This document shows, one piece after another, positions 1 through 3,000 of a stretch of 64,000 bases of DNA. The position numbers were made by a program. Numbering within the stretch: position 1 is the first letter of the stretch; every line of letters starts with the position of its first letter. The DNA is taken from assembly GCF_058153355.1 (NCBI RefSeq), contig NZ_CM177019.1; one strand, given 5' to 3'.

Positions 1-3000
1 CGTCGCCAGCTGGTCGACAGCACGCCATTTTGGTCTGAATCATCTCGGCTTACTGGCACCCGGCAAGCAGGCGGATATCGTCCTGTTGAGCGATGCGCGT
101 AAGGTCACGGTGCAGCAGGTACTGGTGAAAGGCGAGCCGATTGACGCACAAACCTTACAAGCGGAAGAGTCAGCGAGACTGGAACAATCCGCTCCGCCGT
201 ATGGCAATACCATTGCCCGCCAGCCAGTTTCCACCAGCGACTTTGCCCTGCAATTTACGCCTGGAAAACGCTATCGGGTCATTGACGTTATCCATAACGA
301 ATTGATTACGCACTCCCGCTCCAGCGTCTACAGCGAAAATGGTTTTGATCGCGATGATGTGTGCTTTATTGCCGTACTTGAGCGTTACGGGAAAAAACTG
401 GCTCCAGCCTGTGGTTTGCTCGGCGGTTTTGGCCTGAATGAAGGCGCGCTGGCTGCGACGGTCAGCCATGACAGCCATAATATTGTGGTGATCGGTCGTA
501 GTGCCGAAGAGATGGCGCTGGCGGTCAATCAGGTGATTCAGGATGGCGGCGGGCTGTGCGTGGTACGTAACGGCCAGGTACAAAGTCATCTACCGTTGCC
601 CATTGCGGGGCTAATGAGCACCGACACGGCGCAGTCGCTGGCGGAGCAAATTGACGCATTGAAAGCCGCCGCCCGTGAATGTGGTCCGTTACCGGATGAG
701 CCGTTTATTCAGATGGCGTTTCTTTCCCTGCCAGTGATCCCCGCGCTGAAACTAACCAGTCAGGGGCTGTTTGATGGCGAGAAGTTTGCCTTCACCACGC
801 TGGAAGTCACGGAATGAAAAAAGACCGTATTAGCTGATTTACGGAAAATATGTACTCCACAAGCGTCAATATCAGACGAGGCCTGGGAAAAGATGATGTT
901 GTCTGATGAAAGTAATCAGCAGCACATCCGTGAGGCTATTGTGGCGATGGAACGCAATAACCAGAACAATTACTGGGAAGCGTTAGGCAAGGTTGAATGC
1001 CCGGATATGTAGACGTGAAGCCGCAGCTTCACGTCTACATTTAGCACTTAACGTGAACGTACATCGGGAATAATTAAATCACCACGCAAAACATATGAAC
1101 CCAGCATCGTCTGCGTTTTCTCGTTAAGCCAACTGACTATGCGGGCGGCCATTTCGTCCAGCGAATATTCTATCGCCGGAATGGTCGGTATCCCCGGAAG
1201 ATGAACAGTACCCGCCAGACTAAATACCATAATGTCCTCAGGAACAGATTTATTAAACGCCTGCAATTGCGGTATCACCCGCTGTGCTTGCTGTTCATCA
1301 GCAACTAATAACGCATTAAAGTTCAGTGTTGAGGCGTTATTTAGCAGCTCCTGCAAGGCCACTGAGGAAGAGATTGCTTCCATAAAAACCAGATTACGGT
1401 TAAAGGGAAGAAAGTTTTTCTCCAGCGCGTGTTTATAGCCCAGTAAAACCTGGTCAGAAAATCCCATACCGTGTGGGTGGATGAGGGCGATTTGTCGTCT
1501 GTTCTGACTTATCAGATAGTTACAAGCGGTTTCAGTCGCGAATGTGTGGTCGAACTGAATACTGTTAACATCATTACCCGTCTCAAGGCAGTCCACCAGT
1601 ATCACGTTTTCCTGATGAATATTCAGTGGAAAACGCGCACCAATAATCAGCACGTCATCACACAAACCACAGCCCAACTCATCAAGGGCGTTCTTTACCT
1701 CGGCTTTATTGCTGGCGAAGCGAAGAAGTAGATGTTTTTGATGCTGGCTGAGATGTTTTTCCAGAGCGTAAAGATAACCGGTGGTCTGATTAATGTTTTC
1801 CTGAGCACAAATTACACCGATACAGCCCGTAGATTGCGTCAGCAGTGACTGCGCAATGACATTGGGACGATAGTTTAGCTCTTCGACGGCTTTCAATACC
1901 GCGAGACGGCTGGCTTCTTTAACACCACGCGATCCGCTCAACACCCGAGAAACCGTCGCTTTTGAAACGCCAGCCAAACGCGATACATCATTGATAGTAG
2001 ACATCATTCTCCCCTGACAGAGCAGCCCTGGCTCCCACAATCCTGAATTCCTGTTGGCTTAAATATTAGCCGCTCGCAGTATAACTGTTTCCGTTTTTTA
2101 ATGGAAACCGATTTTCCATGACACCTCAAAACTGAGCTAATAATGATAAAAATGTGAACACAATCGAAATAATAACGCGACTTTATAGCGAAATCTGATA
2201 GCCGTCACAGTTTGACGTTTCCATGAATGGAAACCGGTTTCCAAATGATATCAAATCAATTGCGAAATAGATTTTTACATTCAGAGGATGTGTCAGATGG
2301 TCAGGATTATGTTGTGTTGCTCTGCGGGGATGTCAACCAGTCTGCTGGTGAAAAAAATGGTCGAGGCCGCAGAAAGCAGAGAGCTACCGGTAGAGATAGA
2401 TGCCTACGGAGTTTCCGAATTTGATATTCAGTTTCCAAAATATCAGGTGGTGCTACTCGGACCGCAGGTAAAGTACATGTTAAACATGCTCGCAGAAAAG
2501 GCCGCCCCCCAGGGAATACCCGTAAAAGCCATTGATATGGCGGACTACGGAATGCAACGGGGTGACAAGGTGCTGGATTACGCTCTGTCGCTCATTGCAG
2601 CGACACATTAGAAAGGTGTCATTATGAGTTCGTTATATCAATCAATGGTTGCCGTTATTGAACAATCCATCACACCGCTTGCCGGGAAGCTGGGGCAGCA
2701 AAAATATGTGATTGCCATCCGGGACGGTTTTACTGCCGCTCTACCGTTTATGATCATCGGTTCGTTTATGCTGGTGTTCATTTTCCCACCGTTTTCGGCT
2801 GAAACAACCAACAGTTTTGCCCGAGGCTGGCTGGATTTCTCCGCCACCTACCGTGAACAGCTAATGTTGCCATTTAACCTCAGCATGGGGGTGATGACTT
2901 TCTTCATCTCAGTAGGGATCGGCGCCAGCCTTGGGCGACAGTTTAATCTCGATCCGATTATGTCTGGCTTGCTGGCATTTATGGCATTTTTACTGGTCGC

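Follow-up and report, generated by a model that had tools for sequence, protein, structure and literature searches.

Gene order and the truncated yicS gene

The stretch analysed here, 64 kb of contig NZ_CM177019.1 and called the window below, opens with the 3' part of the adenine deaminase gene adeD (1..817, plus strand; open reading frame (ORF) 86..817), which is annotated as adeD in the matching E. coli genomes and ends with the TGA at 815-817. Facing it on the minus strand is a gene for a LacI-family regulator (1048..2004; stop TAA 1048-1050), part of an imported phosphotransferase system (PTS) cluster and with orthologues of 76–93% identity in other Enterobacterales genera. The gap between the two stops is convergent, as the initial annotation of this DNA had described it, and contains a 39-codon ORF (893..1012, plus strand) that runs into a perfect hairpin (1007..1040). 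We explain this gap as a 5'-truncated yicS gene at the edge of an inserted block, followed by a stem-loop native to that block, and assign the explanation as a whole a probability of about 0.88; its first part, the pseudogene and the insert, we hold to be nearly certain.

The ORF starts with ATG and has the product MMLSDESNQQHIREAIVAMERNNQNNYWEALGKVECPDM. Its last sense codon (ATG, 1007-1009) and its stop codon (TAG, 1010-1012) fall in the 5' arm of the hairpin, so it does end there as first reported; the combined feature had been placed at 895-1038, which is the right feature with both ends off by 2 nt (start 893, hairpin end 1040). A length of 39 codons is by itself not above chance. We accept the sequence as former coding sequence because of its homology to YicS, length alone being uninformative. 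The frame stays open upstream to 818, the codon right after the adeD stop, and the 64 codons at 818-1009 align without gaps with residues 34-97 of K-12 YicS (57 of 64 identical, 89%). In a protein search, the 64-aa remnant was 98% identical to the full-length 97-aa YicS of the E. fergusonii type (P0002). It matches positions 33-96 of the 96 in the NCBIfam model YicS_fam (NF041639) with 98.2 bits (cutoff 45, E = 2.4e-28), and the 39-aa product alone matches positions 58-96 with 58.3 bits (E = 6.6e-16). NCBIfam was used for this family, as the Pfam copy at hand predates PF27428 and gave no match even for full-length P0002.

The 39-codon ORF starts at the internal Met59/Met60 codons of YicS and comprises residues 59-97, while homology to YicS extends 25 codons further upstream, to the insert boundary. 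Residues 1–33 are missing, the sequence upstream of 818 being adeD. Full-length YicS has about 97 aa, an N-terminal hydrophobic segment and two cysteines (Cys45 and Cys94). The remnant, designated yicS' here (818..1012, plus strand; codons 34-97 of the 97-codon gene plus the stop), falls short of this: it has no start codon and has lost the N-terminal segment (a signal peptide, judged by eye) and Cys45. A consensus promoter and terminator scan found no promoter-like site on the plus strand upstream of the ORF. We therefore read the ORF as the tail of a 5'-truncated yicS pseudogene, a member fragment of the YicS family and not a functional gene. Such a pseudogene is already known, since RefSeq annotates a 'YicS family protein' with missing N-terminus in 25 of 5426 complete E. 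coli genomes, at a single place in each, and this call covers every complete E. coli genome that carries the stretch. The gene itself has been reported as AggR-regulated (PMC6392122), and a passage of the same paper, citing Verma et al. 2018, implicates it in biofilm formation and in avian pathogenic E. coli (APEC) pathogenicity.

In some public annotations the 39-aa ORF is called as a gene (P0083), and on 33 contigs the remnant appears as a 59-aa 'putative transport protein' gene derived from a stop-loss allele (P0086). Both calls are annotation artefacts and are best treated as pseudogene fragments.

An alignment of nine carrier sequences (the window and eight annotated carriers) was used to follow the fate of the remnant. 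It contains one synonymous and four nonsynonymous changes (W56R, M59I, N83K and P95S), a 7-nt deletion in carrier Combat11I9, a T insertion in carrier A16 that abolishes the stop codon, and a slip in an A-run (6 A versus 7 A); the Met59 codon is ATA in six of the nine. Intact yicS alleles evolve with a dN/dS of ~0.03. The carriers differ from that pattern (Fisher p ~0.04), and the probability that four of five changes are nonsynonymous at an omega of 0.03 is 6e-4. This is the inverse of purifying selection, and the frame is not kept intact among the carriers as would be expected of a functional gene. The remnant has been decaying neutrally since its truncation.

The earlier history was different. 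Compared with K-12 yicS, the remnant differs at 25.5 of 35.8 synonymous and 9.5 of 156 nonsynonymous sites (dN/dS 0.03, dS > 2); it was therefore a selected gene of a distant allele class before truncation, not a recent duplicate. In E105, the single carrier examined for it, a resident K-12-type yicS is intact at its native site, which makes the remnant an extra copy. A recent duplication of the resident gene is excluded by the DNA identity of 82%, the saturated synonymous sites and the intact native yicS in E105. The K-12-type gene (L002 4216-4509) and the E. fergusonii-type gene (L007 10001-10294) also encode proteins that are 81–89% identical, with saturated synonymous sites. Synonymous divergence between the two types is far above what we would expect for these two species, and this saturation suggests either an old allele class or xenologous replacement at a rearranged locus.

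The insert, its junctions and its source

The remnant is the first element of an insert of ~6.98 kb (816..7792) that continues with the LacI-family regulator, PTS IIB, PTS IIC, a GH1 hydrolase (probably a phospho-beta-glucosidase), PTS IIA, a LamB-type porin, a second yicN (DUF1198; 7271-7723, minus strand) and a relic of ~29 nt. The PTS is of the lactose/cellobiose family, and the boundaries of the insert are ambiguous by 3–4 nt. Between the regulator and PTS IIB genes, in the promoter region, we noticed a 16-bp perfect palindrome, TGGAAACCGGTTTCCA, at 2228-2243 and a degenerate copy of it at 2102-2117; both are probably operators of the regulator. The protein of the second yicN is 87–88% identical to K-12 YicN, and an O158:H23 carrier has an internal stop in this gene.

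At the left junction (813..823, plus strand), adeD ending in cacggaat passes into yicS starting with gaaaaaagacc. Homology to E. fergusonii begins at 813 and homology to K-12 adeD stops at ~822. The window reads gaagtcacggaat / gaaaaaagaccgtatta here, K-12 adeD reads gaagtcacggaat / aataaaaaaagccc, and E. fergusonii yicS crosses the same point as tcggcaaat / gaaaaaaagaccgtatta, encoding Ala31-Asn32-Glu33-Lys34-Lys35-Thr36. The joint thus lies at an AAT common to adeD and yicS. By comparison with K-12 and E. fergusonii, the adeD stop is a hybrid codon, with its T from adeD and its GA from the Glu33 codon of yicS. The left joint is identical in all nine aligned carrier sequences, and the insertion event therefore happened once.

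The right junction (7764..7795) runs from the tail of the island, ...cgtccccaggcgttaatctggtctaattg, into aat aaaaaaagccc of the original adeD/uhpT spacer, the joint itself being ggaaaacgtccccaggcgttaatctggtctaattg / aataaaaaaagcccggcgtcatgccgggc. Beyond it the spacer resumes intact from 7793, only 3 nt ahead of the A-run of the adeD/uhpT intergenic terminator (7796..7839, minus strand; A7-GCCCGGC-GTCAT-GCCGGGC), which is complete with its A7/U7 tract beside uhpT (7840-9231, minus strand). The last ~29 nt of the insert (7764-7792) resemble the yicN-adeQ spacer and the 3' end of adeQ in K-12 and in the draft 'E. coli' genome L012; they are not found in E. fergusonii. Placed in a K-12-type target (ggaat aat a7 gccc), the insertion of 816-7792 is clean, and in an 88-3493-type target (ggaat a7 gccc) it would carry a duplication of GAAT.

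In K-12 and other island-free strains the order is adeD-terminator-uhpT, and in K-12 the adeD stop is directly followed by the terminator and uhpT. The initial annotation would have been refuted by the same sequence lying directly downstream of adeD in island-free K-12; K-12 has none there. We read these data as the insertion of a block of ~7 kb precisely at the adeD stop codon, with the remnant as the cut left end of the block. The suspicion that the fragment marks the boundary of an island thus proved right, as did its being a gene fragment (yicS codons 34–97), although it is not a displaced gene: it is the terminal gene of the island itself and arrived with it. In K-12 the terminator doubles as the 3' end of the small RNA UhpU. 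The insert leaves 3'-end formation of uhpT and UhpU undisturbed but separates the terminator from adeD.

How the block came to its new site is less clear-cut. RefSeq annotation of the equivalent insert lists no integrase or transposase gene, the target is the adeD stop codon and not a tRNA gene or att site, and a microhomology of only 3–4 nt ((G)AAT) stands in place of direct repeats; these are not the features of an island inserted by site-specific recombination. About 0.5% of complete E. coli genomes carry the PTS cluster at this new site, ~5 kb from the yicS site and without a mobility gene. We propose that an E. fergusonii-type copy was joined into the adeD/uhpT spacer of E. coli by illegitimate, microhomology-mediated recombination at AAT, an event that would have truncated yicS at codon 33/34 and restored the adeD stop as T+GA.

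The native surroundings of the block can be seen in relatives. In K-12, yicS is found between nlpA and nepI, 3.5 kb upstream of adeD, and no hairpin follows it; in K-12-type E. coli the PTS cluster is absent from the yicS site and the yicS-nepI gap measures only 40 bp. The eight Escherichia genomes encoding P0002 have the order yicL-yicS-> <-LacI-IIB-IIC-GH1-IIA-porin (LamB-type)-<yicN (DUF1198)-adeD-uhpT. One of them, CP042945.1 (locus L007), is E. fergusonii ATCC 35471 (PMC10740950). Window positions 813-7763 are 98.2% identical to this genome over 6954 nt that begin at yicS codon ~32 and stop 40 nt upstream of yicN, in the same gene order. In this E. fergusonii locus, whose PTS is of the beta-glucoside type, however, yicS is full length and follows yicL, the block is followed by adeD without the adeQ-like 29-nt tail, and the hairpin, though in the same place, is imperfect (a 10-bp core with an internal loop). 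Identity of the insert is 95% with L012 (yicL-yicS-LacI...yicN-adeQ-adeD-uhpT, with a K-12-like yicN) and ~80% with Citrobacter. A scan with the regulator protein, one genome per species, found yicS adjoining and converging on the regulator in Citrobacter, Lelliottia, Leclercia, Huaxiibacter and Enterobacter as well; Citrobacter sp. MGH106, for example, has the order yicL-nlpA-yicS-> <-LacI-cluster-nepI-yicN-adeQ-adeD. The PTS cluster is thus an old neighbour of yicS in Enterobacteriaceae, and yicS converging on the regulator the native layout.

Since an adeQ-like tail follows the second yicN, the donor had adeQ beside yicN, unlike the sampled E. fergusonii. As exact donor, E. fergusonii is accordingly not fully supported. 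L012 has adeQ, but it was rejected as donor as well, being only 95% identical and having a K-12-like yicN.

The stem-loop and the alternative explanations

The hairpin, present on both strands between the stops of yicS' and the regulator gene, consists of two arms of 15 nt, 1007-1021 (ATGTAGACGTGAAGC) and 1026-1040 (GCTTCACGTCTACAT), which are 100% complementary and separated by the 4-nt loop CGCA. The initial annotation had reported a perfect 13-bp stem; the stem is indeed perfect, but it is 15 bp long. With eight G-C pairs and a folding energy of -24.3 kcal/mol for 45 nt, it has the G+C-rich stem and short loop of a terminator. A 71-nt segment folds with -30.6 kcal/mol on the plus and -33.5 kcal/mol on the minus strand (z = -5.8 and -7.2), and none of 200 shuffled sequences was as stable. 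The regulator stop is 7 nt away. Within the window the hairpin is single-copy and its arms are also unique; the E. coli carriers have it at one place per genome. It does not lie at the joint but 190 nt within the insert, and a search of 600-2400 against Rfam gave no match at E <= 1.

E. fergusonii, L012, Citrobacter, Lelliottia and Huaxiibacter likewise have a stem-loop where the yicS and regulator genes converge, in the same slot between their stops. Its core is GACGTGAAG(C/T)-CGTC-GCTTCACGTC with an internal loop in E. fergusonii and L012, and GCGTGAAGC-N(3-6)-GCTTCACGC in Citrobacter amalonaticus, Lelliottia, Huaxiibacter and related genomes, two of which (L020 and L033) have a T-run after the hairpin on the yicS strand. 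Enterobacter spp. (L022-L030, L081) carry the palindrome GCCGGGTGGCG...CCCGGCCTAC in this slot, which we read as similar to repetitive extragenic palindromic (REP) elements, and Leclercia (L017, L077) has an unrelated G+C-rich stem with a T-run behind it. A stem-loop is thus conserved in position even where its sequence has been replaced. In an alignment of 15 sequences, with 16 pairs counted, 82% of the cells are paired. Two pairs of the 10-bp core stem change on both sides (GC in 9 and AU in 6 sequences; GC in 7 and AU in 5), whereas the others are constant or nearly so. One of 500 shuffles attained the covariation score, although few independent events underlie it.

The hairpin is the native stem-loop that separates the converging yicS and regulator genes and came as part of the imported block. 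The convergent pair probably shares it as an RNA-level 3'-end element, a reading that we favour with some reserve. Where convergent E. coli genes meet, the positioning of RNA polymerase collisions has been found to require a stem-loop in the nascent RNA (bioRxiv 10.1101/2022.10.23.513370). The hairpin may act in both directions, as a site of pausing, collision positioning or termination and as a block to 3' exonucleases. In the genome of the window its role would be for the regulator mRNA on one strand and, on the other, for adeD read-through, which would now reach it because the original adeD/uhpT terminator is 7 kb away.

The palindrome varies among strains. E. fergusonii and L012 have GTC AC ACAT opposite ATGT A GAC (-17.5 and -20.5 kcal/mol). 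The sequence in most E. coli carriers is GTC A TACAT, which forms a 15-bp stem in which one A is bulged (-20.5 kcal/mol). Deletion of this bulged A in the window, PE164 and 06-00048 gives the perfect 15 bp (-24.3 kcal/mol), while A16 has kept the A and gained a complementary T in the 5' arm, resulting in a perfect 16-bp stem (-25.4 kcal/mol) and the destruction of the pseudogene stop. Judged by alignment length, with at least one member of each class read directly, the 25 genomes comprise ~8 with the perfect 15-bp, ~15 with the bulged and ~2 with the perfect 16-bp form. Ripley, in 1982, and Dutra and Lovett, in 2006, are said to have described template-switch mutation hotspots associated with quasipalindromes. 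Such template switching drives imperfect inverted repeats to perfection, and reciprocal indels opposite an unpaired base are expected from it (PMC7202029). The changes seen here likewise make the repeat more perfect and are templated by the opposite arm. The palindrome could be a natural record of quasipalindrome self-correction in which two lineages perfected the bulged-A state reciprocally, a view that we put forward tentatively. Conflicts with two other characters, the A-run and the Met59 site, hint at more than two origins of the perfect state. Selection for stem stability is an alternative to template switching.

Several points weigh against our account of the locus. No U-tract is present on either strand (UUUAGCACUU, plus; AUAUCCGGGC, minus), directly after the stem there are fewer than five U in eight positions (UUUAGCAC, plus; AUAUCCGG, minus), and the consensus scan did not call the hairpin as a terminator. 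Going by its sequence, it is not a canonical intrinsic (Rho-independent) terminator, and the earlier suggestion of a terminator does not hold in that sense. The core stem is mostly invariant, its covariation support coming from two pairs and few events, and such strong conservation could also be that of a protein-binding site. The RNA-level role is one that we infer. As for the transfer, the sampled E. fergusonii cannot be the donor, as it lacks the ~29-nt adeQ-like tail, and a two-step route, duplication followed by loss of the second adeQ-adeD, may equally have produced what looks like one-step insertion, as the two are indistinguishable. The insert is also as far from those of other E. coli carriers (98.0–98.5%) as from E. 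fergusonii (98.2%), so that the direction and timing of the transfer are uncertain.

Among the alternatives for the hairpin, the most serious is that it is a functionless neutral relic, perfected by the mutational bias of template switching and not by selection. We consider this improbable, yet well worth keeping in mind. It would account for the missing U-tract, for the existence of three states among the carriers with the bulged one commonest (~15 of 25 by alignment length), and for the 'repair' in A16, which removed a stop codon of no consequence in a pseudogene; a mechanism that perfects imperfect inverted repeats is known (PMC7202029). It does not account for a stem-loop in exactly this slot across many genera, with another hairpin or REP-like element where the sequence differs, nor for two pairs with compensatory changes, and the intact regulator gene needs a 3' end. 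A DNA site, either a lacO3-like auxiliary operator of the adjacent regulator or the site of another dimeric protein, is much less probable. The core GTGAAGC...GCTTCAC, which we take to resemble LacI/GalR-type half-sites loosely, is nearly invariant across genera; however, the likely operator of the regulator is the palindrome at 2228-2243, to which the hairpin has no match within three mismatches, the hairpin is 1.2 kb from the promoter, the spacing of its arms varies between 3 and 6 nt, and Enterobacter and Leclercia keep the regulator yet have unrelated palindromes in the slot. Hardly any weight remains for an end or recognition structure of a mobile element that moved the island, be it of the REP/RAYT (REP-associated tyrosine transposase), IS200/IS605 or att type. 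Such elements do use perfect palindromes and the hairpin is near the island boundary, but it lies away from the joint, is present once and not in the many copies typical of REP in the window and in every carrier genome, and occupies the corresponding position in several genera where the locus is native and not an insert; the lack of an annotated integrase or transposase in the equivalent RefSeq insert and of an Rfam match adds to this.

The remaining alternatives concern the reading frame. That it is a real small-protein gene with its own terminator, as the initial annotation had considered, is very unlikely. Speaking for it are the open frame, two ATGs, a weak purine run (GGGAAAAG) upstream, and the gene calls P0083 and P0086 in other assemblies. 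But the ATG is the internal Met59 codon, with YicS homology continuing 25 codons upstream to the insert boundary; it is ATA in most of the aligned carriers; the N-terminal segment, Cys45 and a plus-strand promoter-like site are missing; and carriers show a frameshift, stop loss and the W56R and P95S changes. Still less credible is an AdeD-YicS' fusion made by UGA read-through. It is true that adeD and the remnant share one frame in the window, with the TGA at 815-817 as sole separator. This in-frame state, however, comes from a 1-nt loss in an A7 run: the window has 6 A at 815-823, against the 7 A of the majority of carriers, of intact yicS and of the ancestral state, with which the remnant is out of frame. 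PE164 alone shares the 6 A among the aligned carriers, and E105 (by matching RefSeq coordinates) and F2_81 (by alignment length) can be added. One third of such joints would be in frame by chance, and the relation of the remnant to the adeD frame is incidental. A truncated pseudogene followed by a native stem-loop thus remains the preferred explanation.

Neighbouring observations and comparison with known systems

Other rearrangements affect the same block. In E. coli LH50-c (L093, NZ_CP100500.1; 7856-14475), the yicS remnant, regulator, PTS genes and porin lie elsewhere together with the final 183 nt of adeD, between xylA/GH43/MFS genes and ybgA/DUF3833, without the second yicN and uhpT and with only 95% identity; the adeD-yicS' joint has moved there secondarily within a larger piece. 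Only the 3' part of the porin gene and the second yicN are left in 14EC033 (L101, NZ_CP024147.1; 1788-4045) and CUWW06 (H138). The cut porin gene of 14EC033 borders on insertion sequence IS1 and a truncated tnaA, and the remnant and hairpin were therefore lost by an IS1-associated rearrangement.

The 3' part of adeD in the window (1-812) has no match of at least 99% in 5408 complete E. coli genomes. Island-free strains give its best match, 98.3%, and identity is only 90–95% in 3388 genomes. The gene is unusually polymorphic, and the window comes from a divergent lineage; the complete genomes closest to it (2017-02-2CC, Z0117EC0005 and others) are without the insert. Synteny with E. coli genomes extends from uhpT through the yid genes to ~33.9 kb of the window. 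Multi-copy sequence follows (~33900-39400; median 18 places per genome), and from ~39.4 kb on the sequence of the window corresponds to the glpD/glpEGR-rtcR-malT region, which the closest genomes have ~350 kb away. This break points to a repeated element as the site of a large inversion or rearrangement. In E105 (L098 32-13871), the yicS-nepI interval holds genes for a SycD/LcrH-family chaperone and for SipB-like and IpaD/SipD-like proteins, eilA and the adhesin gene iatC. These type III secretion-related genes presumably belong to a locus like eip/eilA that is related to E. coli type III secretion system 2 (ETT2). A RelE/ParE toxin-antitoxin pair lies between nepI and yicN in the same genome. 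The short yicS-yicN stretch of the chromosome is a hotspot for inserts.

As a whole, the finding is genuine yet unremarkable. A spurious small-protein candidate drops out, and the island boundary is placed to the nucleotide, inside an adeD stop codon that the insert rebuilds. The palindrome polymorphism is a modest natural example for quasipalindrome mutagenesis and for convergent-gene stem-loops that lack a U-tract. If it is mutational, or selective in that a stronger stem-loop is favoured once adeD transcription enters it, the locus would be a small natural test case for the origin and persistence of perfect palindromes between convergent genes.

The closest known counterpart is the yicS pseudogene called by RefSeq and its Prokaryotic Genome Annotation Pipeline (PGAP), such as LZG51_RS24800 in PE164 and J0O73_RS27565 in E105, with the same locus, the same junction and 96–99% identical DNA. 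The window differs in combining the 6-A run, the perfect 15-bp palindrome and an ATG at Met59; all three occur together in none of the eight annotated carriers aligned. With the YicS family (NF041639; Pfam PF27428; K-12 yicS, b4555) the remnant shares the C-terminal VECPDM motif, but compared with b4555 it is the C-terminal two-thirds only and follows adeD instead of adjoining nlpA/yicL.

Ju et al., in 2019, reportedly described bidirectional terminators and stem-loops between convergent E. coli genes. Unlike E. coli bidirectional terminators, the stem in the window is not flanked by an A-tract/U-tract pair. It is like the convergent-gene stem-loops of that species (those attributed to Ju et al. 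2019 and those of Wang et al., bioRxiv 10.1101/2022.10.23.513370) in being a single strong stem-loop in a 35-nt gap between two stops that folds on both strands. In contrast to quasipalindrome reporter systems, the changes in the palindrome are seen as natural polymorphism among strains, for which selection for stem stability remains an alternative. As in quasipalindrome hotspots (PMC7202029), an imperfect repeat has been perfected by single-base indels located exactly opposite the unpaired base.

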